Shown: positions 14,939 through 57,260 of the stretch, in pieces
Layout: each line of letters opens with the position of its first letter
How positions within the stretch are numbered: position 1 is the first letter of the stretch
DNA from: Clostridia bacterium
GTDB lineage: Bacteria > Bacillota > Clostridia > Oscillospirales > Acutalibacteraceae
DNA length: 64,000 nt
Direction of reading: 5' to 3'
NCBI GenBank assembly: GCA_017623235.1
Contig: JAGAPN010000033.1
Location: 13,725-77,724, forward strand
Position numbers and translations under genes: made by a program
The notes under the pieces: generated by a model
The model's input: only the letters and a program-made list of their open reading frames with translations
Database searches by the model: none
What the model was told of the DNA's origin: nothing

Positions 14939-15008
14939 AATCGGCGTTGCCGCACGCTAATAACGCGGTAAAACAGATGTGGTAATCACACAAGAAAGGA
15001 ATGGTTTT

Positions 15009-30812: not shown

Positions 30813-32795
30813 ATGACAAAAACCTATAACTTCATTCTTGAAAAAAAGCATCATCAGTTCCGCCACTCGGTAGACTGGAATCTGGCCGAGGAATATGCCG
30901 AAAAGGGACTTTCTCCCATACAGCGTATGGCCGACCGCTTTGAGAGGCTGTGTAAGGAGGAAAAGGCGGTTATTTTAGAGGGCGAGCAGATAGTTTTTCT
31001 TCGTACAGTTTCCAACCTGCCTGCCATTTTCACCGATGCCGAGTGGGAGGAGATAAAGGCAGGCCACCATATTCACGAGCTGGGCTTTCTTTCAAATCTT
31101 TCTCCCAACTATTACGATACCATAGCTACAGGACTTCTTAAAAAGAGGGAAACCGCCGATGAGTATGGAAAACAGGCTATAGATAATATAATCGCCCTTT
31201 CGGATAAATACCTGGCCGAGGCCAGGGCTCAGGGCAGGGAAGACCTTGTGGAGGTGCTCACACAGGTACCCCGCTATCCTGCAAGGAATTTCCGCGAGGC
31301 CCTGCAGTTCTTCCGTATTCTGCACTTTGCTCTGTGGCTTGAGGGCAATTATCATAATACGGTAGGCCGTTTTGACCGCTACATATATCCTTACCTTAAA
31401 GCCGATATGGATAAGGGTATTTACACCTATGACAGCGCCCTTGCCCTTTTAGAGGATTTCTTTCTCTCCTTCAATAAGGACAGCGATATTTACGTAGGCG
31501 TTCAGCAGGGTGATAACGGTCAAAGTATGATGCTGGGCGGCATTGATGAGGAGGGCAACGACGTTTACAACCTGCTTTCCGAGCTTTGCCTTAAGGCCTC
31601 CTGCAATAATAAGATGATAGACCCCAAAATTAATTTGAGGGTTTCTAAAAGCACGCCCGCCGACCGCTATACCGAGGCCACTAAGCTTACCAAGGCAGGT
31701 CTGGGCTTCCCCCAGTACTCCAACGACGATGTGGTTATTCCCGCCCTTGAGGCTATGGGCTACGACCACGTCGATGCCACCAACTATACCGTTGCCGCCT
31801 GCTGGGAGTTTATCGTGCCCAACGTTGGCGCAGACGTGGCAAATATCAGCGCTATGTCCTACCCCAAGGCGGTAGATACCGCATTACATAAATCCCTTTC
31901 CACCGCCGAAACCTATGAGGATTTCTTTGCCGCCGTAGAGGGCGAGATAAAGGCCGAGTGCGACCGCATCTGTAGCGGTATAAAGGACCTTTGGTTTATT
32001 CCTTCTCCCTTTATGAATGTACTTATGGACTGCAACATTTATGAAGGCGGAAAATATAATAACTTTGGTATCCACGGCACAGGTATTGCCACCGCTGCCG
32101 ACAGCCTGGCGGCTATAAAGAAATACGTTTTCGAGGAAAAGAGCCTTACCGCCGCCGAACTTATTGCGGCAGTAGATTCAAACTTTGAAAACACCCCCGA
32201 GCTGCTGCACAAGCTTCGCTTTGAAACACCCAAGCTTGGTAATAACGATGACTTTGTTGACGGTATTGCCACCGCCCTGCTGGATGCATTTGGCGCCGCA
32301 CTTAAGGGCAGGGTAAACTGCCGAGGCGGCATATTCCGCGCAGGTACGGGCTCTGCTATGTACTATCTCTGGCACGCCAATGAAATAGGCGCATCCCCCG
32401 ACGGCAGAAGAGAAAAGGAGCCCTTCGGCACCAACTATTCGGTATCCCTTTTTGCCAAGGTAAAGGGTCCCGTTTCGGTAATTGCTTCTATGACCAAGCA
32501 GCATTTTGAGAACGCTATGAACGGCGGCCCCCTGACCCTGGAATTCCACCAGAGCGTGTTTGCCGATGAGGATGGCATCGAAAAGGTTGGCCTGCTGGTT
32601 AAAAACTTTATTGACCGTGGCGGTCATCAGCTTCAGCTTAATACCGTAAACCTGGAAAAAATGCTGGATGCCCAAAAGAATCCCGATGCATATAAGCAGC
32701 TTGTGGTACGAATCTGGGGCTGGAGCGCCTACTTCGTAGAGCTTGACCGTGAGTATCAGGACCACGTTATTGCCCGTCAGGCATATACCGTATAA
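30813..32795 (+). CDS. Glycyl radical enzyme (PFL-fold), unusually short at 660 aa, function unknown (GRE1)
   Basis: C-terminal glycyl motif QLVVRIWGWSAYFVELD (Gly636, codon 32718-32720). Thiyl loop NYTVAACWEFIVP (Cys330-x-Glu332, Cys codon 31800-31802). Other GRE blocks are NFREALQFFRILHFALWLE, NGQSMMLGG, GFPQYSNDDVVIPAL, GASPDGRR and GGHQLQLNTVNLEKMLDAQKNPDAYKQL. GGAGG RBS. Confidence 0.85.
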   Translation: MTKTYNFILEKKHHQFRHSVDWNLAEEYAEKGLSPIQRMADRFERLCKEEKAVILEGEQIVFLRTVSNLPAIFTDAEWEEIKAGHHIHELGFLSNLSPNYYDTIATGLLKKRETADEYGKQAIDNIIALSDKYLAEARAQGREDLVEVLTQVPRYPARNFREALQFFRILHFALWLEGNYHNTVGRFDRYIYPYLKADMDKGIYTYDSALALLEDFFLSFNKDSDIYVGVQQGDNGQSMMLGGIDEEGNDVYNLLSELCLKASCNNKMIDPKINLRVSKSTPADRYTEATKLTKAGLGFPQYSNDDVVIPALEAMGYDHVDATNYTVAACWEFIVPNVGADVANISAMSYPKAVDTALHKSLSTAETYEDFFAAVEGEIKAECDRICSGIKDLWFIPSPFMNVLMDCNIYEGGKYNNFGIHGTGIATAADSLAAIKKYVFEEKSLTAAELIAAVDSNFENTPELLHKLRFETPKLGNNDDFVDGIATALLDAFGAALKGRVNCRGGIFRAGTGSAMYYLWHANEIGASPDGRREKEPFGTNYSVSLFAKVKGPVSVIASMTKQHFENAMNGGPLTLEFHQSVFADEDGIEKVGLLVKNFIDRGGHQLQLNTVNLEKMLDAQKNPDAYKQLVVRIWGWSAYFVELDREYQDHVIARQAYTV

Positions 32796-32801
32796 TTTGT
32801 T

Positions 32802-33566
32802 ATGATAGGTACTATTTTTGACATTAAAGAAATGGCGGTACACGACGGACCGGGCATCCGCACCACGGTGTTTTTTAAGGGATGCCCCCTTCGGTGTATC
32901 TGGTGCCACAATCCCGAGGGGCTGGTTGCTCAGCCCCAGCTTATGTTTAAGGAAGCCCGCTGTACAGGCTGTAGGCGTTGTTTTGTCCAATGCAACCACC
33001 CCGACTGCAGGAAATTTGGCAGATGCATTCACGTCTGCCCCCAAAACTGCCTTGAGGTTGCAGGTCGCACCGTTGAGGCAGGGAAGCTGGCCTCGGAGCT
33101 TAAAGCCTCTGCCGATATTTTAGGTGATACCTTCGGCGGCTTTACCTTTTCGGGTGGAGAGCCCCTGGCCCAGCCCGAATTTCTTTTAAGTCTTATAGAG
33201 GAACTAAAACCCCATCACCTGTGTATCGAAACCTCGGGCTATACCGACCCCGATACCTTCGGTAGGGTAATAGAAAAGCTCGATTATATTATTATGGATA
33301 TAAAGCTGGCCGATTCCGAGAAGCATCAGAAATATACAGGGGTAGGAAACGAGCTTATCCTTAAGAATTTCAGCATACTGAAAAACAGCTCAAAGCCCTA
33401 CCTTATCCGCACCCCCTTAATACCCGATATTACCGATACCGAGGAAAATCTGGCGGCTATAAAGGAAATTATAGGGGGCAGCCCCTGGGAAAAGCTGCCC
33501 TATAACGTCGCCGCAGGGGCAAAGTACAAAATGCTGGGTATGAAATTTAAAATGGAAGGAAAATAA
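32802..33566 (+). CDS. Glycyl-radical-enzyme activating enzyme (radical SAM), AE1
   Basis: HDGPGIRTTVFFKGCPLRCIWCHNPE (CxxxCxxC). An 8-Cys insert CTGCRRCFVQC...C.....C...C...C is consistent with two auxiliary Fe-S clusters. GGEPL SAM motif. Starts 6 nt after GRE1. Confidence 0.85.
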   Translation: MIGTIFDIKEMAVHDGPGIRTTVFFKGCPLRCIWCHNPEGLVAQPQLMFKEARCTGCRRCFVQCNHPDCRKFGRCIHVCPQNCLEVAGRTVEAGKLASELKASADILGDTFGGFTFSGGEPLAQPEFLLSLIEELKPHHLCIETSGYTDPDTFGRVIEKLDYIIMDIKLADSEKHQKYTGVGNELILKNFSILKNSSKPYLIRTPLIPDITDTEENLAAIKEIIGGSPWEKLPYNVAAGAKYKMLGMKFKMEGK

Positions 33567-33569
33567 AAG

Positions 33570-35276
33570 ATGAAGGTCCGTGCAATAAGAGCCGACGGCA
33601 GTATAGATATTTTAGAACCCGCCGTAGAAACCAAGGGAAATATCACTACCGTTTCCATAAAAAAGGAAGAGGTGGGCGCCGCCGAGTACGTAGATTTTCT
33701 CTACGATTATCTCACCGCAAGGGAAGGGGACGAGGGATATTTCGTCCTGCCCTTTGACTGTCAGAACGGCGTTACCGCTTGCTATTTTAACCACAAAGAG
33801 GATACCGAGTTTGTTTCCGACTTTTCCCATATTTATTGCTACGGAATGAAGAAGGCCGAGGGTGGTATTTTCGGCATTATTACAGGCTGTAAATACGACT
33901 ACGCCCTGGTAGCAGGGGTAAAGGACGGAAGCTATTACGCTTATCCCCGTTTTAAAACCGAGGGTGAGATTCCCGAGGACGATATAGAGGTACAGTATTA
34001 TTACCTTGAAAATGGCGACTATAACGAAATGGCCGCTGTTTACCGTAAAAACCAGTTGGAAAAAGAAGGCTGTGAGCCTCTGGAGGTCAGGGTAAAGAGG
34101 GATCCACGCCTTGCCCGTGCCGCTGACAGTATTGCGGTGCGTGTGCGCCAGGGCTGGAAGCCTGTTCCAAGCCCTGTAGAAAATCAGACTGCCGATACCG
34201 AGCCCGATATGGTGGTGGCCTGTGACTACGACCGTGTGGGTCAGCTTGTGGATGAGTTTGAGCGCCAGGGTATAGACAAGGCAGAATTTTGCCTTGTGGG
34301 CTGGAACCGTATGGGTCACGACGGCCGTTATCCCCAGATATTCCCGCCCGAGCCCAAGCTGGGTGGCGAAGAAAAGCTTCGCCGTCTTATTAAGAATACC
34401 AAGGCCATGGGCTATAACATTGTAGGCCACACCAATGCCTCCGATGCCTATACCGTATCGGAGCTGTGGGATGAAGAATACCTTCTCAAAACCCGTGACG
34501 GCAGTTTTTTTAAAATGGATTCCTGGTCCAGCGGCCGCGCACATAAGATTTGCCCTAAAAGAATGTACGAGCGTTTTGGTGAGGACCATAACGAAAGACT
34601 GGCCGAGCTGGGCTTTGAGGGCATCCACTACAGCGACGTTATAACCATTCTGGCCATAAAGCGCTGCTTTAACCCCGACCACCCCCTTACCCGTAAGGAG
34701 GGTGCTATGTGGTACAGAAAGCTTATGGAAAGGGCCAGGGTCAATTTCGGCGGCTTTTCTTCCGAATCGGGTTACGATTACGCCGCCTCATCCCTTGACT
34801 ATGCTATGTATATCAGCTTCCACCTTGATAACAAGGATATGCCTGATATCTGTGATGAGCAGATACCCTTTTGGGAAATTGTCTATCACGGCATAATTCT
34901 TTATAACCCAGGTACATATACCCTTAATTACACCGCCAAGAAAAAGGAAAACCGCCTTAAATTCTTCGAGTTTGGCGGCCGTCCTCTGGTGTGTGTTTAT
35001 GCCAACTTTGCGGCAGACCGCAACTGGATGGGTCTTGAGGATATCCGTATGGATACCGATGAGGAAATGCGGGAAAGCGTTTCTAAAATAAAGGTTATGG
35101 CCGATGATTACAAGTGGCTGGAGGAAGTGCGTTTTGCCTTTATGGACAGCCATAAAAGGGTTGCCGACGGAGTTTATGAAATCGCATATTCAAACGGCAT
35201 AACCTTGACTGTAGATTATAATCTTGCCAAGGTTACGATGCAGGGAGATGGAATATGGAAGGAATTGACTATATAA
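33570..35276 (+). CDS. Cytoplasmic paralog of the 11812..14010 lipoprotein (unassigned family, TIM-barrel glycosidase-like)
   Basis: No signal peptide. Shares blocks with the lipoprotein (listed at that feature). The core CLVGWNRMGHDGRYPQIFP...MGYNIVGHTNASD...FEGIHYSDV resembles a (b/a)8 glycan-active fold. Inference only. Confidence 0.45.
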   Translation: MKVRAIRADGSIDILEPAVETKGNITTVSIKKEEVGAAEYVDFLYDYLTAREGDEGYFVLPFDCQNGVTACYFNHKEDTEFVSDFSHIYCYGMKKAEGGIFGIITGCKYDYALVAGVKDGSYYAYPRFKTEGEIPEDDIEVQYYYLENGDYNEMAAVYRKNQLEKEGCEPLEVRVKRDPRLARAADSIAVRVRQGWKPVPSPVENQTADTEPDMVVACDYDRVGQLVDEFERQGIDKAEFCLVGWNRMGHDGRYPQIFPPEPKLGGEEKLRRLIKNTKAMGYNIVGHTNASDAYTVSELWDEEYLLKTRDGSFFKMDSWSSGRAHKICPKRMYERFGEDHNERLAELGFEGIHYSDVITILAIKRCFNPDHPLTRKEGAMWYRKLMERARVNFGGFSSESGYDYAASSLDYAMYISFHLDNKDMPDICDEQIPFWEIVYHGIILYNPGTYTLNYTAKKKENRLKFFEFGGRPLVCVYANFAADRNWMGLEDIRMDTDEEMRESVSKIKVMADDYKWLEEVRFAFMDSHKRVADGVYEIAYSNGITLTVDYNLAKVTMQGDGIWKELTI

Positions 35277-46710: not shown

Positions 46711-48936
46711 TTATACGCCCTGTAAAAATCTTTCAACCACAAGCTGGCGGAAGCGCGGAGAAAGGGATGCAAAATATGCCGTAAAGCCGGTTACCCGTAC
46801 CACCAAATCGGGGTGCAGGGTGGGGTCCTTGTGGGCCTCCATCAGTTTTTCGGTATCCAGCACGTTTATGTTTATAAGGGTGCCGCCATTTTCAAAATGG
46901 CTCTTTATAAGGGTGGAAACTATCTCTACACCATTTTCATCCTCGGCAATTTGGGGGTCAAACTCCAGCTGCAGGGGAGCGGTGTTGCCCCAGCCGCACT
47001 GTACGGCGGCAATACCGTTGGATTGGGCGGTAACGGCGCCGTCATTTCTGAAATGGGGGTTGGGATTTGCGCCGTGGGATATGGGCTCTCCCGTTCTTCT
47101 GCCGTTAGGAGTAGCCCCTACGGCGGAGCCGTATTCGATGGTTCTCGCCCAGGAAAACCAACCGGGAATAAGCTGTCTGCCCTCGGGCATAGGTGTAGAT
47201 TTTATCTTTTCTACCCAGCAATCGGTAAGGCGCTTTGCCCAGCGGTCGGCAGGGGTGTTTCCGCCGCAGTATTTGGGGGCAGAATTCAGCATCAGCCTTA
47301 TTCTTTCTCCCATAACACCATCAAAATTATTATCAAGACAGGTGAAAACCTCATCCCAGGTCAGCGCCTTTTCGTCTTCAACCCTCTGCTCCAATGCGCC
47401 GAAGGAGTCGGCTACAACCGCCAGACCCGCCCCGTCAACGCCTACGGTATAGAGCTTGGCGCACCTTGAAATATCAAGGCCCTTTTCCAAGGTGTCCTCC
47501 ATCATCAGGTTCATAATAAGCTCGGGGGTAACCTCTGCCTGGTGGTCAATATGCAGGTTGATTCCTGCCGCAGTAACCTCTGCCGCCTTTTCAAGATGAC
47601 GGCCGAAAATATCAAATAGCCTCTCGGTAGAGGGCCGGCCGCCCTCTTGGCGCATTGTTTTGATAGATTGCTCCAGCACCTTGGCCACGTTTATCTTTAC
47701 GGTGTCGTTCATAGGAAACTCTATACCCGGCACGCACATCCAGTTACAGCCCACCGCTATTCGCCGCCTTGCAATTTCCTTGGTAACGCCAAGGTTTCGC
47801 ATATATCCCTCGGATAAATTTTTGTCCGAGCAAAATCTGGGCCAGGCATTTTTATTTTTAAGCAGATAATATACCGCTTTTCTGAAAAATTCCTTATCGC
47901 AGTTCTCGTGATACCGTACCGTGATATTGGCCGAAATGTTTATCTGGTCGCAGGCGTCAAGTATAAGGTAGGAAAGGTGATTGGTAAGGTCACGGTCCTC
48001 CGCATCAACACCCGATACCTGGTAGTAGTGGGGGTCAATAAGCAGTAGATTGGCTATAAGGAATTTGGCCTTCTCATCATCTAAAATACCTGCCTCAAGG
48101 TCCCTTTTATAGTAGGGATAAAGCAGGGTATCCAGCTGAAAGCCTGCGCCGTCACGGGTATATATTCGGGATGCAATATTAAAGTAGGCTACCCATTGGC
48201 AGGCCTCGTAAAAGGTTTTCGGCGCCGCAAGACGGATGCTGCGGTTTACCTCCAGCATTTCCTCAAGGCTTGCTTTAATTTCCGGTCTGGCTTCTGCCTT
48301 AATAAGCCGTTCTATTTCTTCAATATTTCGCTCTATAAAGCGGATTATTGCCTTAACGCACTTTTCTTCCGCATCATAGAAATCGGCCTTGTCGGGGTTA
48401 ATTTTGCGGTATTTTTCTATTTTTTCAAGAAAACCGCCAAAGCCCAACCCCAGGCCTATAGAATAGTCGCAGGCCAGGTGGGCGTCGCCGTCAATACCCG
48501 TCTGAATATTATAAAACTTCTGCAGGGGCTTTAGATGGTCGTAGGGGAAATTCTTCTCATCCCACCGCTTGCTCCATTGGTTGGTAACCCCCGTCAGGTC
48601 CTCGTCCTTTAGCTGGGCCTTGCGCCATTTTGGCATATAATGCAGGTCACCGCGGTAGTTTACCAGCATATCACGCCAGCGGCCGCACAGCAGCTCCATA
48701 GGGTCAACGTAAGGGGGGTGGGCATCCATAACTCGGCAGAAATTTTCACTCATACCGTCAAGACAGTAAAAGCTGCCGTTTTCCGAGTTAAACCAAGGCT
48801 CCACCCTGTAGCCCTCGGGCAGGGGAACGGTGCCGAAATCATCCAGGTCGGTATAACCGTTCTGCTCTAATTTATCCAGGGTGTGCTGTATTTTAGTTTT
48901 TCTTATGGCTGATATTCTGTCCTTATAGGTCAGCAT
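46711..48936 (-). CDS. Glycyl radical enzyme (PFL-fold), 741 aa, function unknown (GRE2)
   Basis: C-terminal DLVVRVTGFTAYFASL (Gly717, codon 46786-46788). Thiyl loop RRIAVGCNWMCVPG (Cys397 codon 47746-47748, Cys401, no Glu at +2). Other blocks are TFYEACQWVAYFNIASR, GATPNGRR and GGTLININVLDTEKLMEAHKDP. Confidence 0.85.
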   Translation of the reverse strand: MLTYKDRISAIRKTKIQHTLDKLEQNGYTDLDDFGTVPLPEGYRVEPWFNSENGSFYCLDGMSENFCRVMDAHPPYVDPMELLCGRWRDMLVNYRGDLHYMPKWRKAQLKDEDLTGVTNQWSKRWDEKNFPYDHLKPLQKFYNIQTGIDGDAHLACDYSIGLGLGFGGFLEKIEKYRKINPDKADFYDAEEKCVKAIIRFIERNIEEIERLIKAEARPEIKASLEEMLEVNRSIRLAAPKTFYEACQWVAYFNIASRIYTRDGAGFQLDTLLYPYYKRDLEAGILDDEKAKFLIANLLLIDPHYYQVSGVDAEDRDLTNHLSYLILDACDQINISANITVRYHENCDKEFFRKAVYYLLKNKNAWPRFCSDKNLSEGYMRNLGVTKEIARRRIAVGCNWMCVPGIEFPMNDTVKINVAKVLEQSIKTMRQEGGRPSTERLFDIFGRHLEKAAEVTAAGINLHIDHQAEVTPELIMNLMMEDTLEKGLDISRCAKLYTVGVDGAGLAVVADSFGALEQRVEDEKALTWDEVFTCLDNNFDGVMGERIRLMLNSAPKYCGGNTPADRWAKRLTDCWVEKIKSTPMPEGRQLIPGWFSWARTIEYGSAVGATPNGRRTGEPISHGANPNPHFRNDGAVTAQSNGIAAVQCGWGNTAPLQLEFDPQIAEDENGVEIVSTLIKSHFENGGTLININVLDTEKLMEAHKDPTLHPDLVVRVTGFTAYFASLSPRFRQLVVERFLQGV

Positions 48937-49702
48937 ATTTTTTCAGCTCCTCCATTTTTGCCCTGTTGGGTATCTTAAATTCGTTTAGGCTTAATCCAAG
49001 AGCCTCCCGCTTGCTCTCACCCAGGGGATGATAGGGTAGAAGCTCATAACCCAAAATATTCTTAAAATCCTTGATAAAATCCCTTATTTTGCTTATTTCT
49101 TCGGGGTTGTCGTTAATACCCGGGATAATGGGGGTCCTCACAATAAAGGGCACGCTGAGAAGGTCCAGCATAATAAAATGGGGCTTTATCTTGTCGTTAT
49201 AAACCCCGATATATTTGTGGTGCTTTTCTCTGTCCCAAAGCTTAAAATCGGCCATTACCAGGTCAACGCTGCCAAGGATTTCGGGATTATAGATAAATAA
49301 TGAGGTTTCTATTGCGGTATGAATACCTTCCTTTTTGCAAAGGGCGATAAGCTCTTTCAGTATTTCGGGGTATAGCAGAGGCTCCCCACCCGAAAAGGTG
49401 ACACCGCCGCCACCTGCGTAGCTGGCCTTATCGAGCAATATTTCATCAAAGATTTCCTCTGCGGTCATTTCCTTACCGCAGATAACCCTTGCCCCGGCGT
49501 AGCAGCCCTTTTCACAAAGACCGCAGCCGATGCATTTTTCGGGATAAAAAAGGGTCTGTGGCGCCTTTTCAATGCATTCGGGATTGTGACACCAGGCGCA
49601 GGAAAGGGGACAGCCCTTAAAAAATACGGTGGTACGTATTCCGGGACCGTCGTGTAGGGAGGCCCGCTGAATATCGGCTACGATAGCGGTGTTTTTATCC
49701 AT
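48923..49702 (-). CDS. Glycyl-radical-enzyme activating enzyme (radical SAM), AE2
   Basis: HDGPGIRTTVFFKGCPLSCAWCHNPE. A single CIGCGLCEKGC...C insert (5 Cys). GGEPLL. Overlaps GRE2 by 14 nt. Confidence 0.85.
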   Translation of the reverse strand: MDKNTAIVADIQRASLHDGPGIRTTVFFKGCPLSCAWCHNPECIEKAPQTLFYPEKCIGCGLCEKGCYAGARVICGKEMTAEEIFDEILLDKASYAGGGGVTFSGGEPLLYPEILKELIALCKKEGIHTAIETSLFIYNPEILGSVDLVMADFKLWDREKHHKYIGVYNDKIKPHFIMLDLLSVPFIVRTPIIPGINDNPEEISKIRDFIKDFKNILGYELLPYHPLGESKREALGLSLNEFKIPNRAKMEELKKYADL

Positions 49703-50792
49703 TTATCTCTTCCTTTTTACCGCTTTCTGCTGAACGCAGAGCGGCATCTATAAGAGCCATAAGCTGGATGTTGAAATCCAGGGTTACGGTTTTAATAAAG
49801 GGTGTGCCCTCTCTTTTACAGTAGGCGTAATGGTCGGGCAGATTTTTTATAGCAGGGTGAATTTCATAGTCGGGCAGGGGAATAACCTCGCCGTAGCTGT
49901 TCATAGCTACAACCCTTTTGTCGGCATCGCAGAAAAGCACACCGTCGGTGCAAAGGTAAACGGGGCCTGTAGGCAGAGAGGCCTGGGGTACCGTCCAGCT
50001 ACCCTCAACCACACCGTAGGAATCCTTATATTCGATAATTCCTGCCATATTGTCGGGGGCATTCATATAGGGGGTGCCGTAGTTGCCCGAAAAAGCCATA
50101 ACCGAAAGAGGCTTATCGGTGGCATTATCCCTTGCCCATTGGTTGAAGAAACAGCCGTAGCAGCCGATATCAAGGAATGCGCCGCCCCCCGTTTCATTCT
50201 TATACCACCAGGTGGATGACCTCTCTTCATCGGTCATTTCCTGGGCCTTTTCACTAACGCCTCGATGCTTGGCACCCTTGCCCAGGGGGCCTGTATGACC
50301 GTTTATGTAAAAGGCCTTAATCAGCTTTCCGACAACACCGCTCTCCAGAGCCGCCAGCTGCTGATGCAGGTAGGGCCGCCAGATAACGGGCCAGTTAACT
50401 ACGGCCTCAATGCCGTATTTTTCTACCGATGCCTTTATTTTAAGGGTATCGGCAAGGCTTACGGCCATAGGCTTTTCGATGCTGACGTTAACGCCTCTTT
50501 TTGCACACTCCTCAACTATAAGGGGCTTATTTGCGTTATCGCAGAGAATGAATGCCAAATCGGGCTTTATTTCATCCAGCATTACCCTGTAATCCTCGTA
50601 AGGAGTTATGCCGAATTTTTCGCTGTTGTTCTTAATATTCCAGGCTCTGGTATATCTGGCCTGGGTGTTTTCGGGGGTTTCGGGGGGTACGTCGGCCATG
50701 CCTGCCAGGGTAAAATCGGGGCACTCGTCAATATACTGTGCAATCTCGTTTACGTGCATGTGGGCAAAGCCGATTATAACTGCTTTAAACAT
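49695..50792 (-). CDS. Gfo/Idh/MocA-family oxidoreductase
   Basis: N-terminal Rossmann segment FKAVIIGFAHMHVNE, EKP motif (VSIEKPMA), 365 aa. 8-nt overlaps on both sides. Confidence 0.75.
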   Translation of the reverse strand: MFKAVIIGFAHMHVNEIAQYIDECPDFTLAGMADVPPETPENTQARYTRAWNIKNNSEKFGITPYEDYRVMLDEIKPDLAFILCDNANKPLIVEECAKRGVNVSIEKPMAVSLADTLKIKASVEKYGIEAVVNWPVIWRPYLHQQLAALESGVVGKLIKAFYINGHTGPLGKGAKHRGVSEKAQEMTDEERSSTWWYKNETGGGAFLDIGCYGCFFNQWARDNATDKPLSVMAFSGNYGTPYMNAPDNMAGIIEYKDSYGVVEGSWTVPQASLPTGPVYLCTDGVLFCDADKRVVAMNSYGEVIPLPDYEIHPAIKNLPDHYAYCKREGTPFIKTVTLDFNIQLMALIDAALRSAESGKKEEING

Positions 50793-51858
50793 TTATCTTC
50801 ACCTCTCGGCCTTCCTTTGCGGAAAGGTAGGCCGCCTCAAGTATTGCGGTAACGTTCAGGGTTTCCTCGGGCAGAACGGCAGGGGACGCCTTGCCGTTTA
50901 TTACCTCTGCCATATTCTTAACCAGGCAGAAATGTCCGTAGAAGGGGTCATCCTTAAAGCCATTGGGAGTAACCTCTAAATCTTTTATATCCTCGGCGCC
51001 GCTATAGACCTTTTTGGCCTCAATATCGACGCCGCAGTTTTTACCTGCAAGAATAATATTGTTTTCCTCTCTGAGGTTTGCCGCCCAGGCCACCTTAAAG
51101 GAGAGGGTTGCGCCGTTTTCAAAACGGACGCTGCCACCCGAGAAGGATTCAACGTTCATATCGTCGGGATTAAAGCCTGAGGTATCGACGTTGCCCTTAA
51201 GTGCCCCCGAGCTTTTGTCGGAGCCCAGCTCATCGGAATGTATTTTACTCATTGTGGCGGTAACCGAAACAGGCTTGGGGTTGCCCATAAGCCATATTGC
51301 GCTGTCGATACCGTGAACGCCAATGTCCACCAGGGCGCCGCCACCCGAAAATTCCTTAAGGTGGAACTTGCCCCAGGTGGGAATACCTCTTCTGCGAATA
51401 CGGGACAGCTCGGCATAATAAACCTCGCCTACAGCGCCGCTTTTAACCTGCTCAAAGGCAGCCTGGCGCTCGGGCAGAAAACGCAAGCTCTGGCAGGCCA
51501 TAAGGGTAAGACCTGCGTCTTTTGCGCAATTAAACATCTCCCTTGCATCGGCCAGGGTAAAGGCCAGGGGCTTTTCGCACAGCACGTTTGCGCCGTGGTT
51601 TAGGGCCAGCATAGTGTATTCTTTGTGAAGCATATTAGGGGCGCAGACCGATACCAGGTCGGGCTTTTCGGTTTTCAGCATCTCCTCGGCATCTGTGTAA
51701 ACCCTGGGTATACCGTGGGTAGCGGCAGCCTTTTCTGCCGCAGGGGAGTATATATCGAATATACCCGCTATCTCAAAATCCTCGGGATATGCTTTATATG
51801 CAGGGATGTGGGCGGAATTTGCTATCATTCCTGCGCCGATAATACAAACCTTAAGCAT
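50785..51858 (-). CDS. Gfo/Idh/MocA-family oxidoreductase
   Basis: MLKVCIIGAGMIANSAHIPAY, VLCEKPLAFT, GALVDIGVHGID. Confidence 0.8.
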   Translation of the reverse strand: MLKVCIIGAGMIANSAHIPAYKAYPEDFEIAGIFDIYSPAAEKAAATHGIPRVYTDAEEMLKTEKPDLVSVCAPNMLHKEYTMLALNHGANVLCEKPLAFTLADAREMFNCAKDAGLTLMACQSLRFLPERQAAFEQVKSGAVGEVYYAELSRIRRRGIPTWGKFHLKEFSGGGALVDIGVHGIDSAIWLMGNPKPVSVTATMSKIHSDELGSDKSSGALKGNVDTSGFNPDDMNVESFSGGSVRFENGATLSFKVAWAANLREENNIILAGKNCGVDIEAKKVYSGAEDIKDLEVTPNGFKDDPFYGHFCLVKNMAEVINGKASPAVLPEETLNVTAILEAAYLSAKEGREVKINV

Positions 51859-52621
51859 TTTCTATCTCCTTTAAAAAACCAAGGGTCTCGCTGTCGGGCA
51901 GGGTGGCCCTGTATTCAAGACCGATATGACCCTTATAGTCGGTTTTATTTATTGCCTTTATTATGGAAACGTAGTCAACCCCTCCCGTTCCGGGCTGATG
52001 TCTTCCCGGGCAATCTGCCACGTGGAAATGACCGATAAGGTGAATGTTATCCAGCACCTGCTTTAGGTCGAAATCACCCATCATATTCTGATGATAGATG
52101 TCGTAAAGCATCTTTACGTGGGGGCTGTTTATTTCATCCAGCAACTCGAAAACGGGGGTGGCCCAGGGCATAGAATATCCTATCCTGTCTTTATCGTTAA
52201 GGGGCTCTACCACCAGGTTGACGTCGTGCTCCTCCAGCAGGGGCAGGGCGGCGGTAAGGCAGGCCTTAACCTTGTCCTTGTTGTAGGGGGCGTTTTCACC
52301 AATCAGCACTATCATGGCAGAGGCGCCCAGCCTTTTGTATACGGGGATGCTCTCCTTCAGGGCGGCTATAAAATCCTCACACCTGCCGTCGTTAAGTATT
52401 CCACGGGAAAGGTCGTAGGAAAGCTGCTCATCGGTGCTGTCTATATTGAAGATAGAAAGCTTCATATCCTCACTTTTCAGAATGTTCTCCACTCGGTCTA
52501 CGTCCTTGTTGGTCCATTTCCAGAACTCGGCGGTGTCATACCCACAGCCCTTCACAAGGCCGAATTTATCGTAAAATTCGGCCGTTGAGAACATCATATC
52601 AATACAAAGGCTTACCTTCAT
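51851..52621 (-). CDS. Hydroxypyruvate-isomerase-like (Hyi/OtnI-type) xylose-isomerase-fold TIM-barrel protein
   Basis: NLVVEPLN...VKMLYDIYHQNMMGDF...IGHFHVADCPGRHQPGTGGVDY...YKGHIGLEY parallels E. coli Hyi (IEPIN...IQYDIYHMQRMEGEL...IGHLQIADNPHRGEPGTGEINY...GWVGCEY). I prefer the ATG at 52621 (MKVSLCIDMMF, GGAG RBS), because the track's longer start would overlap the upstream gene's stop at 52633. Confidence 0.7.
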   Translation of the reverse strand: MKVSLCIDMMFSTAEFYDKFGLVKGCGYDTAEFWKWTNKDVDRVENILKSEDMKLSIFNIDSTDEQLSYDLSRGILNDGRCEDFIAALKESIPVYKRLGASAMIVLIGENAPYNKDKVKACLTAALPLLEEHDVNLVVEPLNDKDRIGYSMPWATPVFELLDEINSPHVKMLYDIYHQNMMGDFDLKQVLDNIHLIGHFHVADCPGRHQPGTGGVDYVSIIKAINKTDYKGHIGLEYRATLPDSETLGFLKEIENA

Positions 52622-52632
52622 CGTTATCTCCT

Positions 52633-54969
52633 TTAATAATCCAGGTCGTATCTTGTGGCGGCATACTTGCAGTATTTCCACAGTCCCATAAGACGGAATG
52701 ATTTCAGCTCATCCTCGCTTCTTATTTCGGTATAGGCAATATCAATGCCCTTTTCCTTACATTTAAGATAATTTTCCTCGGTGATGTAGGACTCTCCGCC
52801 GTTGGAAACGTAGATGAATTTGGGGTTATTCTCTCCGTAGGTGGCTATCTGACTAATGAGGGTGTCTGTTATTTTCTGCACCCAGGTACCCATAGCCGCC
52901 TTGGGGAGCTTATCTGCCAGATATACAAGGTCCGCTGCCGTCTGTCCGTTTATCATAAGGTTATCCTTATGACCGTAGAGGTCAATGAGAGCCACCAGCT
53001 CATCCAGCTTATCCTCGGTAAGGTCAACCTTTAATTCCAGATGGGGTACGACCTCTAATTCTTTACAAAGGGCCAAGAATTCCTCAACACGCATAATTTT
53101 TGTGCCCTTATACTGCTGACCCTTATATACACCGAAATCGTAGGTGTCGGCCTGGGCCAGGGTGATGTCGGCAATATTTATGGCTTCGTCGTTGGTTATA
53201 CGTTTGCCCTCGCTGTTGGTGGCGTAGCTGTTAATGGTCTTGTCGTGCAGGGCAACAAAATGTCCGTCTGAGGTCAGCCTTACGTCGCACAGCAGAATTT
53301 TATATCCCTTTTCATAGGCCATTCTGTAGGAGGCCAGGGATTGCTGGGGCGGGGTGTTGCTGTCGTAGGGACGGTAGCCGATACGGGCTATCTTCTGTAC
53401 GGCACGCAGACCCTCGCCGATAGTATCGTTAAGCAAAGCGGTACGGAAGTTAGCGGCATCCTCAGCATCTACAGAGCCGTTTTTGTTGGTATCGGAAATA
53501 TAGTAATAATCCTTGCTGACGTTCATATATACCAGGTCCCTTATATCAAACAAAGTGTCACCGTTGGCATCATAGTCCAGGGCGATATATGCGGGATTTT
53601 TAAAATGCTCGTAATAGTCAAAATTGTTCTTATCGCTTAAAACTGTGCCGTATCCCCCTGCTGAAACGGTGGCAGAATCCTCCTTGCCCACCGTACCGCC
53701 AAAGAATTTGGGACCGTCGGCCCAGCCGTAAAGACCCATATCAAAATTGGGATTAACCAGCAGATTGGTTCGGGTGGTATCGCCCTTTTTATACAGGAAG
53801 AAATTAGAGTAATTGCCCACCAGGGCGGTAGAGCTGTTTATTCTGACACCTACAATATGTCTTACCCTGTAGCCGTTCTCTTCGATAGAGCAGGCGTCGT
53901 CACCGCCTGCAGTAAAGGTAACGTAGGAAAGGTTGTAGGGACCGTACTCAAGGTTAGCCTCCTTGCATTGGGCCTCGGTAAGGTCGCAGGTCTTTTGAAT
54001 ACTACCTCGCACAGAGGAAAGGCGGGTAGTGGTGTTTGAGGTCTTGGAAGAGCCGGTCTGGTACTCGACCCATAAGGGCTCGTTCTTGTATCCGGAGTTG
54101 TCCTTGGTATCCACCGTGCCGTAGGCGCCGAAAACATACTCTACACCCTTTTCCAGGGCAATAGTCTGTCCAAAGGTAACGTTGCTTACGGCATTGTTGT
54201 TGGCAAGGTATTTGGGATTGCCCGTTACCTTGTCGGTGGAGGTGTAGGTGAAGCTTTCTATATAAGCGTAATCCTCGGGACTGGTGGAGGAGCCGCTGAC
54301 ACCAATACCTGCCGTACCCTTTAAATAGGGAGCTTCGGTGTCAAGGTAGGTGCCGGTTACCACCAGCTTTTCGGTATCGCCGTCAAGGGTGTAAAGGTTT
54401 ACGGTAATGGCCGCGGCCTTATCTCCGCTTATCACCATCTCCAGACGATAGCTCATACCCTCCTGCTGTGCGCTGACGCCGCATTGAAGCAGAGGGTTAT
54501 TGTTATCGGCGGTGCCGTTTATCTTGTGAAGCATTACTTTGCCGTTTGAGGGGCGGTAAAGGGCATAATATCCTGCCATTGTGGTCCAGTCACCGGGCCT
54601 GCTTAATCGGCCGTAAACGTAGGCTGTGTTACCCTTGGCCAAATCCTCATCGCTGAACTCTACCGCTATACGCTGGTTTTCACGCTCCATTTCGGGCAGA
54701 TAAATACAACCTGCGTAGGCCGAGCGGGTTTGCTTTTGGGTGATGACCTTCAGCTTTCCGTTTTCTACTGTGGAGGTGTATGCCCTGCCGTCGGTGGTTA
54801 CATTTTCCTCGGCCATAAAGGCCCAACTGTTTGCCAGGGAATTGCCTGTAAATTCGTCGGAATACACCCCGTTAATAGAGGTGGCAGTACCCTGCACCGT
54901 CATACCTGTGGGGGTGCAAATGGTAAGGCAAATTATAAGGGATAAGACTAAAGCGGCTATTCTTTTCAT
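52633..54969 (-). CDS. Secreted modular protein: LamG-like module, jelly-roll module, internal dockerin and a C-terminal divergent GDPD-like (PLC-like phosphodiesterase TIM-barrel) domain
   Basis: Signal peptide MKRIAALVLSLIICLTICTP. Shared modules with 61990..63666. Dockerin loops DANGDTLFDIRD and DTNKNGSVDAEDAANF at ~53425-53585. GDPD-like IARIGYRPYD...LLCDVRLTSDGHFVALHDKTIN at ~52633-53400. Confidence 0.65.
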   Translation of the reverse strand: MKRIAALVLSLIICLTICTPTGMTVQGTATSINGVYSDEFTGNSLANSWAFMAEENVTTDGRAYTSTVENGKLKVITQKQTRSAYAGCIYLPEMERENQRIAVEFSDEDLAKGNTAYVYGRLSRPGDWTTMAGYYALYRPSNGKVMLHKINGTADNNNPLLQCGVSAQQEGMSYRLEMVISGDKAAAITVNLYTLDGDTEKLVVTGTYLDTEAPYLKGTAGIGVSGSSTSPEDYAYIESFTYTSTDKVTGNPKYLANNNAVSNVTFGQTIALEKGVEYVFGAYGTVDTKDNSGYKNEPLWVEYQTGSSKTSNTTTRLSSVRGSIQKTCDLTEAQCKEANLEYGPYNLSYVTFTAGGDDACSIEENGYRVRHIVGVRINSSTALVGNYSNFFLYKKGDTTRTNLLVNPNFDMGLYGWADGPKFFGGTVGKEDSATVSAGGYGTVLSDKNNFDYYEHFKNPAYIALDYDANGDTLFDIRDLVYMNVSKDYYYISDTNKNGSVDAEDAANFRTALLNDTIGEGLRAVQKIARIGYRPYDSNTPPQQSLASYRMAYEKGYKILLCDVRLTSDGHFVALHDKTINSYATNSEGKRITNDEAINIADITLAQADTYDFGVYKGQQYKGTKIMRVEEFLALCKELEVVPHLELKVDLTEDKLDELVALIDLYGHKDNLMINGQTAADLVYLADKLPKAAMGTWVQKITDTLISQIATYGENNPKFIYVSNGGESYITEENYLKCKEKGIDIAYTEIRSEDELKSFRLMGLWKYCKYAATRYDLDY

Positions 54970-54986: not shown

Positions 54987-56267
54987 TTATTTTTCTTCGT
55001 AGTAATCCTTCTTTTCAAAGGTAAGTCTTTCAAGATTTTTTGGGGCATCGCCGAAATCGGGAACCTCAATGGGCAGTCCGTCCTTCATAGCCGACTCGTG
55101 GGCTATAATTCCGGGGATGATGTATCTTGCCGAATCCCAGGCGTTATTGGGGGGCAGCTTGTTTGCTACCACCGCTCTCATAAAGTCGTCCACCAGGAAG
55201 GGGTGAGAGTTGTAGTGAACGGTATCGGGGCAGCTTCTGAATGCCAGGGGCAGACGGTCAACGTCGTGAATAGGGGCGAAGCCTCTGTGAGCAGGCTCCG
55301 AAATGGGGTAGGTGTTTATCGCAAAATCGGGAGCCTTGGAGGTCTTTGTATAGGTGTTGGTGTTCAGCAGGTCGCTGACGTAATCAATTCTTGTATCGTC
55401 CACACCTGCTGCGGTACCCTTTATAAGCACGTGCTGGGTAACCGAGCCCTCGTAGCCACCCTTGTCGCCGTAAAGGCAGGTTATGTAGGAGGAGGGCTTG
55501 TGGGGGATACCTGCGCGGCGGAACTCATTAATTCTGGCCACACCGCCGCCCGACATCTGCATAAGGGCGGTTTCATTACTGAAGGGGTTATCCCAATTAT
55601 TTTTACCCTTGCCGAAAACACCGTCCTCGTGGTTATCTCGGTAGCCCATACAGCTTACCTTGGTAACGTGCTCGTCTATAACCGAGGTAATCATAGAAAT
55701 AGAATGGGTGGAGTAGTACATAGGAGGAATACCTGCAACCCTCTTCCAATCCTTGCCGCCTGAGTGGGCAAAGGCGTAGTAGAAGGTGGCCATATCGTGG
55801 TAATACTGGCTTTCTCCGTAAACAAATTTACCGAGCAGTCCTTTGCGGTAAACATCACGGCAGAAGATAGCGCAGGGGAAGTAGTAGCAGGTTTCACCTG
55901 TCATATAAACCATACCCGTGCGCTTTACTGCTTCAATAATTTTCCCCATATCCTCAATATCCGAAGCCATAGGCACGGCGCTGAAAACGTGCTTGCCTGC
56001 ATTAAGGCAATCCACCGCCATACTGCCGTGGAGGTGACGCTGTGTAAATATTGCCACACAGTCAACGTCCTTGCCCTCACGCAGCACCTCTTCAAGGGAG
56101 TGGAATATTCGGCTTATACCGTGTTTCTTGGCGGCGGCATCGCACCTTTCGGGTACAATGTCGGCTACCGATACCTCAGCCACGTCGGGATGGCTTTTAA
56201 AAAGGGGAATAAAAAAGTCGGAAAACTCTCCTAAACCCACTATACAAACCTTATGCTGCTTTGACAT
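54987..56267 (-). CDS. Gfo/Idh/MocA-family oxidoreductase (426 aa form)
   Basis: MSKQHKVCIVGLGEFSDFF Rossmann start. I prefer the ATG at 56267 (RBS GAAAGAAGG) over the TTG at 56285. It is the first gene of the - strand operon that ends with GRE2. Confidence 0.65.
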   Translation of the reverse strand: MSKQHKVCIVGLGEFSDFFIPLFKSHPDVAEVSVADIVPERCDAAAKKHGISRIFHSLEEVLREGKDVDCVAIFTQRHLHGSMAVDCLNAGKHVFSAVPMASDIEDMGKIIEAVKRTGMVYMTGETCYYFPCAIFCRDVYRKGLLGKFVYGESQYYHDMATFYYAFAHSGGKDWKRVAGIPPMYYSTHSISMITSVIDEHVTKVSCMGYRDNHEDGVFGKGKNNWDNPFSNETALMQMSGGGVARINEFRRAGIPHKPSSYITCLYGDKGGYEGSVTQHVLIKGTAAGVDDTRIDYVSDLLNTNTYTKTSKAPDFAINTYPISEPAHRGFAPIHDVDRLPLAFRSCPDTVHYNSHPFLVDDFMRAVVANKLPPNNAWDSARYIIPGIIAHESAMKDGLPIEVPDFGDAPKNLERLTFEKKDYYEEK

Positions 56268-56333
56268 ATAAAAACCTTCTTTCAAAGAATAAATCTTTCC
56301 AAATATAATATATCATATAAGGAGCGATTGTTA

Positions 56334-56405: not shown

Positions 56406-57260
56406 ATGATAAAAATAAAATATAAAAAACGTCGGGAGGTGCCTGAAATAAATATCTATGACAGCATTTTCAGCCTGCCTGAAAATGAGTTTTTCGTGGG
56501 AGATTTTGCCGCCGTCCGCAAGGAGATTATTCCTCCCGCACATTTCAAATGCCATAAAAATCTGGTGCTTTATCAGCGGTTTGTATATGTAGTAAAAGGT
56601 ACTTTTATCTTTAACGATGAGGTGCATAAAAACGTAAGATTTGAGCCCGGGGATATCATTTATCTTCCCTCCGACGTGGTTTATGAATCCTATTGGGAGA
56701 AGGACGAGATAGGGGAGTTTATTTCACTTAATTTCTGCCTTTACGACCCCTTGCATAATAATATAAATCTTTTTGACGACTTGGTGCTGGCCTGTAAAGA
56801 CCCCGACCGAAAGCTTTTCTCGGTGTTTGACGAGGTCCAGGAAATCTGGAATAAATCTGCCAGAGGCCATAAGCTGCAGTGTATATCCCATCTTTATGCT
56901 CTGCTTTACCGTATAGGCAAATATTCCTTACGACTTGAAGAAGGCAGTAAAAACGCCATATCAAAGGCGGTTATATACCTGGAAAATCACTTTTTAAACG
57001 ACGTCACCGTGGAGGACCTGGTAAAGCTTACCAACGTGGGAGAGTGTCAGTTTAGGCGAAGCTTTAAGGCCCTTAAGGGAATGTCACCCATAAAGTACCG
57101 CAATATGCTTAGGATGACCAAGGCCATAGACCTGCTTAAAACGGGGGAGTATTCGGTTGTGGAGGCCTCTATGATAGTAGGCTTTGATGACCCTTCATAT
57201 TTTTCCAAGCTTTTTAAAAAACAGTTTGGCCAGAGTCCTTCGAGTTATATACCGCAATAA
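56406..57260 (+). CDS. AraC/XylS-family transcriptional regulator
   Basis: N-terminal cupin-like sensor region. C-terminal double HTH VEDLVKLTNVGECQFRRSFKALKGMSPIKYRNMLRMTKAIDLL...VVEASMIVGFDDPSYFSKLFKKQFGQSPSSY. Confidence 0.85.
   Translation: MIKIKYKKRREVPEINIYDSIFSLPENEFFVGDFAAVRKEIIPPAHFKCHKNLVLYQRFVYVVKGTFIFNDEVHKNVRFEPGDIIYLPSDVVYESYWEKDEIGEFISLNFCLYDPLHNNINLFDDLVLACKDPDRKLFSVFDEVQEIWNKSARGHKLQCISHLYALLYRIGKYSLRLEEGSKNAISKAVIYLENHFLNDVTVEDLVKLTNVGECQFRRSFKALKGMSPIKYRNMLRMTKAIDLLKTGEYSVVEASMIVGFDDPSYFSKLFKKQFGQSPSSYIPQ

Follow-up and report, generated by a model that had tools for sequence, protein, structure and literature searches.

A glycyl radical enzyme (GRE), here called GRE2, carries a tryptophan two residues after its predicted catalytic cysteine (position Cys+2), where GRE eliminases have a glutamate. 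The gene lies in a 64,000-nucleotide stretch of DNA from a Clostridia bacterium of the Acutalibacteraceae (GenBank assembly GCA_017623235.1, contig JAGAPN010000033.1, forward-strand positions 13,725 to 77,724), which is referred to below as the window. Sequence comparisons indicate that this invariant Trp, and not the second cysteine of the same loop, is the informative change in GRE2, and that it is the signature of a monophyletic clade. On balance we lean toward a reading in which GRE2 is a working enzyme of an uncharacterized, sugar-directed Cys-x-Trp clade, where W399 would stack on the substrate and acid/base residues would be provided from elsewhere in the protein. The conclusions on clade and loop are firm, while our confidence in the chemistry is modest. 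The gene and the parts of it that matter most are the following.

46711-48936, reverse strand: GRE2, a 741-amino-acid (aa) glycyl radical enzyme of the Cys-x-Trp clade (Pfam, AlphaFold2 model, Foldseek)
47734-47751, reverse strand: Cys-loop tip G396-C397-N398-W399-M400-C401 (codon map, alignments to GRE chains of the Protein Data Bank (PDB), profile-profile alignment)
47749-47751, reverse strand: G396 (codon map)
47746-47748, reverse strand: C397 (TGT), predicted thiyl-radical cysteine (aligned with C433 of glycerol dehydratase (GD), the PflD cysteine and C330 of GRE1, the other GRE in the window)
47743-47745, reverse strand: N398 (codon map)
47740-47742, reverse strand: W399 (TGG), Cys+2, where eliminases have Glu (codon map, alignments)
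47737-47739, reverse strand: M400 (codon map)
47734-47736, reverse strand: C401 (TGC), Cys+4, lineage-specific second cysteine (codon map, conservation)
46771-46797, reverse strand: Gly loop R714-V-T-G717-F-T-A-Y-F722 (sequence, alignments)

GRE2 has the features expected of the superfamily, namely a PFL-like barrel (Pfam PF02901, 6.4e-89) followed by a C-terminal Gly-radical domain (PF01228, 1.7e-13), a radical glycine, a cysteine on the finger loop between the half-barrels and a cognate activase. In its fuller form the Gly loop reads VVRVTG717FTAYF, which fits the RVxG[FYW] pattern of the radical site; G717 is present and invariant in both family alignments, with none of the Ala, Ser or Thr replacements for the radical Gly that mark aminoacyl radical enzymes. 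The loop is thus intact, as the original prediction, made by eye from the sequence, had it. The same prediction read the thiyl loop as G-C-N-W-M-C at 47734-47748, and codon mapping places exactly C397 to C401 in that interval.

Four independent alignments concur on the placement of this loop. When GRE2 was aligned to PDB chains with phmmer, its segment 'arrriavGCnWmcvPG' fell without gaps on 'dGCvEiapfG' of the A. fulgidus GRE (2f3o), on 'iGCvEpqkPG' of glycerol dehydratase (1r8w; C433/E435) and on 'vGCvElsiPG' of PflD (8yjo). BLASTP against GRE1 set C397 opposite C330 and W399 opposite E332. Profile-profile comparison with hhalign of a 28-sequence Trp-clade alignment and a 20-sequence alignment of CxE enzymes (those with Glu at Cys+2) gave a probability of 100 and the same Cys-loop register at top confidence, with 'GC~W~~VPG~EY~~~D' over 'GCVEp~~pG~~~~~tDa'. 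The structural comparison, consisting of this profile-profile alignment and a fold search, used an AlphaFold2 model of GRE2 built on the clade alignment (pLDDT 91.2, pTM 0.92), for which the top Foldseek matches were GD, propanediol dehydratase, PflD, 2f3o and HplG at TM-scores of 0.8-0.85. The placement would have been overturned by a canonical C-x-E or CC motif elsewhere in GRE2, and a scan of all 16 of its cysteines returned neither. Collectively, the alignments identify C397 as the predicted catalytic cysteine and W399 as the occupant of the Cys+2 Glu position, with no insertion or deletion between them, and the loop is, as originally described, of neither the CXE nor the PFL-type CC form.

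GRE2 is probably active as a glycyl radical enzyme: neither C397 nor G717 varies, the GRE2 start is overlapped by the gene of a complete activase carrying a CX3CX2C motif, and the family is strongly conserved. On this point, too, our analysis agrees with the original prediction.

To place the loop in a wider family, we searched 1.84 billion representatives clustered at 50% identity, retrieved 4303 relatives, and aligned the full-length ones among the best 150. The 26 most similar full-length clusters, down to roughly 24-30% identity, all read G-C-[N/H/F/Q/G/P/Y]-W-x-x-[IV]-P-G-x-E, while 60 of the remaining aligned representatives have G-C-x-E and 10 have other Cys-loop variants. Trp therefore occupies Cys+2 in 26/26 clade representatives and in 0/60 CxE representatives; C397 is invariant in all 96. 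Closer to GRE2, all 120 close homologues and all 79 genome orthologues have C-x-W. A neighbor-joining tree calculated with the Cys-loop columns removed recovered the 26 Trp sequences as a single split in 100/100 bootstraps, and by this evidence the Cys+2 Trp marks out a monophyletic clade.

Loss of the Cys+2 carboxylate in the Trp clade is accompanied by three other carboxylates, and several aromatics, that are gained or fixed in the active-site region. GRE2 itself carries the full signature: the G-C-x-W-x-x-[IV]-P-G-x-E loop, Asp at Cys+14 and Glu at the position of E472. The residues concerned, together with a histidine of the GD type, are listed here.

47719-47721, reverse strand: E406, Cys+9, of the PGxE motif (Glu in 88% of the Trp clade vs 13% of the CxE set)
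47704-47706, reverse strand: D411, Cys+14, counterpart of GD D447 (100% of the Trp clade vs 30% of the CxE set)
47521-47523, reverse strand: E472 (Glu in 26/26 of the Trp clade vs 0/60 of the CxE set, which has T, S or D there)
48478-48480, reverse strand: H153, counterpart of GD H164 (His in 88% of the Trp clade vs 95% of the CxE set)

E472 was aligned opposite GD L519 by phmmer. Position 166 is Trp in 88% of the Trp clade vs 0% of the CxE set, and Phe in GRE2's own family; T716, just before the radical Gly, is present in 88% vs 17%, and F/Y594 and W596 are also typical of the Trp clade. The original prediction allowed for a different proton-transfer arrangement in GRE2, which is plausible given that only the Trp clade has fixed E472, D411 and E406.

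Two further observations concern the same alignment. At C557 (47266-47268, reverse strand), GRE2 and its close family read PKYCGG; this column is Gly (PKYGND) in 92% of the Trp clade and in 60/60 CxE enzymes. The change is family-specific and may reflect a local one-residue shift. In addition, the ten GRE clusters with neither Glu nor Trp at Cys+2 (P0189, P0194, P0197, P0201, P0208, P0222, P0250, P0251, P0261 and P0264) have the loops GCNNI, GCSTG, GCSIF, GCADP, GCNHI, GCVQT, GCAIV, GCVSL, GCWQL and GCVGV, and all keep the radical Gly.

GRE2 is the last gene of a run in which TIM barrel, GfoB, GfoA, activase and GRE2 follow one another with overlaps of 8-14 nt between neighbors. GfoC and a gene for a secreted protein lie further upstream, as does a gene for a divergent AraC-family regulator.

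48923-49702, reverse strand: GRE-activating radical SAM enzyme, 259 aa, overlapping the GRE2 start by 14 nt (TIGR02494, 264 bits, cut-off 174)
49695-50792, reverse strand: GfoA, a divergent Gfo/Idh/MocA protein, 365 aa (Pfam)
50785-51858, reverse strand: GfoB, a DgpA-like sugar oxidoreductase, 357 aa (best PDB matches DgpA1 9m3d and DgpA 7xr9)
51851-52681, reverse strand: xylose-isomerase-like TIM barrel, 276 aa (Pfam AP_endonuc_2)
54987-56285, reverse strand: GfoC, a third Gfo/Idh/MocA oxidoreductase, 432 aa (domain and homology searches)
56406-57260, forward strand: divergent AraC-family regulator (Pfam HTH_18/HTH_AraC and cupin)

The activase carries CPLSCAWC (CX3CX2C) and a ferredoxin-like CX2CX2CX3C motif, CIGCGLCEKGC. 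GfoB matches DgpA1 (9m3d, 1.9e-51) and DgpA (7xr9, 4.5e-51) over its full length; DgpA is described as a gut-bacterial enzyme oxidizing C- and O-glycosides at sugar C3 (PMC11239390). In GfoA, the partner most tightly linked to the GRE, IGFAHMH stands at the N-terminus where a GxGxxG dinucleotide motif would be expected, and 'GCYG' occupies the usual site of the catalytic His, with the EKP motif kept; as a partner of the DgpA-like protein, GfoA may be non-canonical or non-catalytic.

A scan of genomes, one per species, returned at least 588 GRE2 relatives, and the best 80 (56-80% identity) were examined as loci. Almost all of these 80 come from metagenome-assembled genomes (MAGs) of animal or human gut Clostridia, among others of the Acutalibacteraceae, Oscillospiraceae, Christensenellaceae and Lachnospiraceae; the clade is widespread in gut MAGs from ruminants, humans (Hadza, Nepali), chickens and other animals. 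The activase adjoins the GRE in 68/80 loci, GfoA is directly upstream of the activase in 58/80, and a GfoB-type gene is present in 54/80, often with two Gfo pairs. In one locus (L013) the Gfo gene beside GfoA is likewise DgpA-like (4e-54). GfoC is found in 18/80, and AraC-type genes flank the module in many loci. A DgpA-like oxidoreductase, a divergent Gfo/Idh/MocA protein, an activase and a GRE thus make up a fixed module in related genomes.

The TIM barrel, also in 18/80 loci, was considered as a lyase of the DgpB/C type and set aside on account of this limited spread and of its best matches, which are to other isomerases and epimerases; it matches hydroxypyruvate and 2-oxo-tetronate isomerase models weakly. 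In three related genomes (L060, 7184-12214; L065, 7044-12214; L067, 2-4333) a second GRE of another kind, with the Cys loop G-C-G-E-Y and the Gly loop RVGGFSARF, stands in for the Gfo pair. This gene lies directly upstream of a single activase and the GRE2 orthologue, which suggests that the two GREs share one activase.

More distant members were sought in metagenomes, where the scan gave about 30 CxW loci on mostly short contigs, with many ordinary CxE GREs in its lower half. The distant Trp-clade loci, which come from environmental metagenomes, are without the Gfo pair. Some contain genes resembling myo-inositol-1-phosphate synthase (MIPS) together with those for a PfkB kinase, an SDR epimerase, sugar ABC transporters and beta-helix proteins, and others contain AGE-family (GlcNAc 2-epimerase-like) and GH42-like genes. 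All Trp-clade members examined sit in carbohydrate loci. The MIPS-like genes stand beside distant Cys-x-Trp GREs in L084 (776-1843) and L089 (1182-2285 and 3434-4507), where one or two of them occur with a PfkB kinase and a sugar ABC transporter, an unusual combination for a catabolic-looking locus.

Comparison with characterized enzymes identified GRE2 as a new variant inside a known superfamily; it matches no characterized enzyme and no paper that we found. According to a 2026 review of the superfamily, entire GRE clades are still unannotated (PMC13450708). A search for characterized homologues gave no PDB chain closer than about 22% identity to GRE2, and in the literature, searched also for GREs tied to inositol, monosaccharides or C-glycosides, we saw no report that connects a GRE with DgpA-type or Gfo/Idh/MocA enzymes and none describing GRE2. 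GRE2 also scores far below every NCBIfam equivalog cut-off (bits vs cut-off: TIGR01774 of the GD/PFL2 subfamily, 269 vs 678; HypD, 187 vs 1100; CutC, 150 vs 1050; HpfG, 190 vs 1000; TIGR01255, 70.7 vs 994).

The best fold matches are GD and propanediol dehydratase (1r8w, 5i2a and 9rcq; TM-scores 0.81-0.84), which are also among the best by sequence (3e-51). They share with GRE2 the barrel, the Cys finger, the Gly finger and a dedicated radical SAM activase, and GD H164, D447 and Y339 correspond to GRE2 H153, D411 and Y305. In GD, Glu435 of the CXE motif deprotonates the substrate hydroxyl and His164 donates a proton to the leaving hydroxyl (PMC13450708). GRE2 retains a His and an Asp of the GD type, a weak likeness given that the His is common to most GREs, but identity is about 20%, GD Glu435 is replaced by Trp, and GD H281, S282 and Y640 become Y259, T260 and F594. 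GRE2 is, moreover, 45-100 residues shorter than the GD type, and it sits in a sugar-oxidoreductase operon rather than a diol or microcompartment locus.

PflD and YbiW (8yjo, 8id0 and 8id7), which are 1,5-anhydrohexitol-6-phosphate isomerases, also rank high by sequence and fold. They are the sole characterized GREs that act on pyranose-type sugars (PMC13450708), and their keto-sugar product is processed downstream, a possible analogy for the Gfo partners of GRE2. They differ in keeping CXE, with Glu433/Glu443 binding the C2-OH (PMC13450708), in sharing only about 20-22% identity with GRE2, and in their loci, where downstream aldolases cleave the keto-sugar (PMC13450708) while the GRE2 locus has DgpA-like Gfo/Idh/MocA genes. 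In the DgpA-DgpB-DgpC system for C-glycoside deglycosylation in gut Dorea, to whose first component GfoB is similar, both systems belong to anaerobic gut Firmicutes and involve glycoside or sugar substrates; the GRE2 module, however, has no conserved DgpB/DgpC-type lyase pair and carries the GRE and activase in that place.

Similarity to GREs with non-elimination chemistry is weak, with matches to indoleacetate decarboxylase (NCBIfam, 4e-32), the HPAD large subunit (3e-31) and BSS (PDB, 1e-16). Phenylacetate decarboxylase (PAD) and the X-succinate synthases provide a precedent for an altered active site going with altered chemistry, but their substrates are aromatic or hydrocarbon, the X-succinate synthases need accessory subunits, and neither has a Trp at Cys+2 as the review describes them (PMC13450708). 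GRE2 does not have the setting of an X-succinate synthase, its neighbors being Gfo/Idh/MocA, TIM-barrel, AraC and glycoside hydrolase genes, and no conserved small-ORF (open reading frame) family emerged near GRE2 relatives in a clustering that covered ORFs of 120 aa or more.

In the mechanism that we propose, the C397 thiyl radical is predicted to face G717, and a sugar, cyclitol or (keto)glycoside would be bound by stacking on W399 and other aromatics. The thiyl radical would abstract a ring C-H, and the resulting substrate radical may undergo beta-scission of a C-O (or C-C) bond or rearrangement. Proton transfers could be carried out by D411 and H153, possibly with E472 or E406; alternatively, a carbonyl installed by the partner oxidoreductase may make proton transfer unnecessary. 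GRE2 appears to share its transcript with the genes of the activase and of two Gfo/Idh/MocA proteins, of which one is DgpA-like (of the glycoside 3-oxidoreductase type), and the Gfo enzymes would prepare the substrate or reduce a keto product. C401 would lie outside the conserved mechanism.

Several points weigh against this reading. By chain topology, E472 falls in the segment leading into strand 7, at the foot of the Cys finger and the barrel end through which this finger enters, and its role may be limited to anchoring the loop or the Trp, with no substrate contact. H153, conserved across most GREs, is little informative. Gfo genes are unlinked to the most distant CxW members, and pairing with an oxidoreductase may be a trait of a single subfamily. 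Finally, the chemistry may not be elimination at all, because every characterized eliminase or isomerase needs the Cys+2 Glu.

This last point is at the center of the chief competing explanation, by which the missing Glu would signal a change in the kind of reaction, comparable to that in the X-succinate synthases and PAD. GRE2 would then cleave or form C-C bonds by radical chemistry, or invert a stereocenter, in a sugar or keto-sugar, with the conserved acids only binding hydroxyls. All C-O, C-N and C-S GRE eliminases and the three isomerases keep CXE with the Glu bound to substrate, this Glu is essential in CutC and IslA, and characterized GREs of other reaction classes differ in their Cys-loop arrangement, PFL and TdcE having two cysteines (PMC13450708). 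Gln484 is essential in PAD. In that enzyme the catalytic residue is Cys482, which makes Gln484 its Cys+2 residue. The depth of the Trp clade (24-30% identity), which never reverts to Glu, and partner enzymes that make or handle keto-sugars point the same way. The nearest relatives by sequence and fold are, however, dehydratases and isomerases; the GD-type H153 and D411 are kept, D411 more strictly than in the CxE enzymes; and E472 was gained alongside loss of the Cys+2 Glu, as if acid/base function had been moved rather than lost. We regard a change of reaction class without a general base as possible yet doubtful. Equally tentative is a broader proposal in which the Cys-x-Trp GREs form a new functional class for radical cleavage or rearrangement of a keto-sugar, cyclitol or glycoside, beyond polar beta-elimination. 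In such a class there would be no Cys+2 base, its role falling to a substrate carbonyl or to relocated acids (E472, D411), W399 would stack on the ring, and the partners would be DgpA-like, MIPS-like or AGE-type.

Much less probable is a two-cysteine mechanism, in which the C-x-x-x-C spacing is the key innovation and C401 works with C397 as a PFL-like relay, as a radical epimerase's hydrogen donor on the opposite face, or in a redox or disulfide pairing. GRE2 does resemble PFL and TdcE in belonging to the same superfamily and having more than one cysteine on the Cys loop, its homologues carry the pipeline annotation 'formate acetyltransferase', and 117/120 close homologues and 71/79 genome orthologues share the Cys at position 401, which recurs in a few distant clade members (P0128, P0160, P0161, P0187, P0193 and P0211). 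Two loop cysteines are known in no GRE but PFL and TdcE, and in PFL these are adjacent and both essential (Cys418-Cys419; PMC13450708), whereas the GRE2 loop, C-N-W-M-C, lacks a CC and its second cysteine appears dispensable. Ala replaces C401 in 3/120 close homologues and 8/79 orthologues, among them L043, L070, L076, L077 and L080, where the operon GfoB-GfoA-activase-GRE is unchanged. Conservation of C401 is confined to the family of at least 56% identity; elsewhere in the Trp clade the residue is A, S, N, G, V or C, mostly one of the first five, and 4/60 CxE enzymes have Cys there as well. In the AlphaFold2 model, residues 400-401 form a descending hairpin strand paired with 393-394, which would put the C401 side chain about two strand steps from C397. 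C401 is therefore a lineage-specific residue that is unlikely to be catalytic, because orthologues with the same operon have Ala and the rest of the clade varies, and the PFL analogy fails. The original prediction had singled out C397, W399 and C401; the first two are invariant, but the weight it laid on the second cysteine does not survive the comparison. Least probable of all, and in our estimate very unlikely, is that GRE2 is a degenerate or non-catalytic paralogue, either a spare glycyl-radical carrier or a decaying duplicate. Such a reading would account for the absence of a residue essential in the closest characterized relatives, but it is at odds with the invariance of W399, C397 and G717 and the clade-specific fixed residues down to 24% identity, with a full-length ORF and a confidently predicted fold, with the dedicated activase kept in most related loci, and with the wide spread of the family across animal-gut MAGs. 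The sugar-directed reading, with W399 stacking and acid/base function placed elsewhere, is thus the one that we retain.

The comparator in the window, GRE1, is a different enzyme and not a redundant copy, as the original prediction argued: the two share 24% identity, and each has its own activase and different neighbors. GRE1 also has the C-x-E form ascribed to it there.

30813-32795, forward strand: GRE1, 660 aa, with the Cys loop A-C330-W-E332 (alignments, motif scan)
32802-33566: GRE1's own activase (neighborhood of GRE1)

GRE1 is unusually short. Its PFL-like profile match begins only at profile position 217, and it appears to be without much of the usual N-terminal region, including the GD-type His segment (Asn at that column); its Gly loop is RIWGW. 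Beta-helix proteins are encoded before it and a DUF5696 gene after it (33570-35276).

The rest of the window is a large glycan-utilization region. Inside the GRE2 operon, the gene for a secreted 778-aa glycerophosphodiester phosphodiesterase (GDPD) protein (52633-54969, reverse strand) has no counterpart in the 80 related loci (0/80). His-phosphatase, PHP and metallophosphoesterase genes near it hint at a phosphorylated glycan substrate in this locus only. An inositol or glycerophosphodiester reading based on the GDPD gene was rejected, since its absence from the related loci makes it a local insertion outside the module. A 2008-aa ORF (14979-21005, forward strand) has ABC transporter genes and two DUF5696 genes around it, and its sole recognizable domain is a GDSL esterase (residues 725-921). 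The window also encodes uronate-pathway enzymes, namely UxuA, a PfkB kinase, an SDR and a gluconolactonase-like protein.

GREs account for a large share of the demanding anaerobic chemistry of gut microbiomes, among it the formation of trimethylamine, p-cresol, skatole and H2S and the use of hydroxyproline and anhydro-sugars. Their classification rests on Cys-loop motifs, with CC marking the formate lyases and CXE the eliminases and isomerases, and the Trp clade breaks the CXE rule in a conserved manner. Our analysis also cautions against taking a second cysteine on a GRE loop for a PFL-like trait before its conservation has been checked. The signature G-C-x-W...P-G-x-E...D, together with the P-E-L Glu, could correct thousands of 'formate acetyltransferase' annotations. 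The feature in GRE2 is real, conserved and uncharacterized, and the clade that it defines is coherent, deep, widespread in the gut and tied to glycoside and sugar oxidoreductases. An invariant Trp in place of Glu points, so far as sequence can tell, to sugar chemistry not yet described, which makes GRE2 a promising starting point for new GRE chemistry in the carbohydrate metabolism of the gut and its module a four-gene target for finding a new GRE reaction in the metabolism of dietary glycans and glycosides. If the Cys-x-Trp GREs do form a new functional class, they would add a radical branch to the 'oxidize-eliminate-reduce' scheme by which carbohydrates and glycosides are broken down anaerobically in animal guts.

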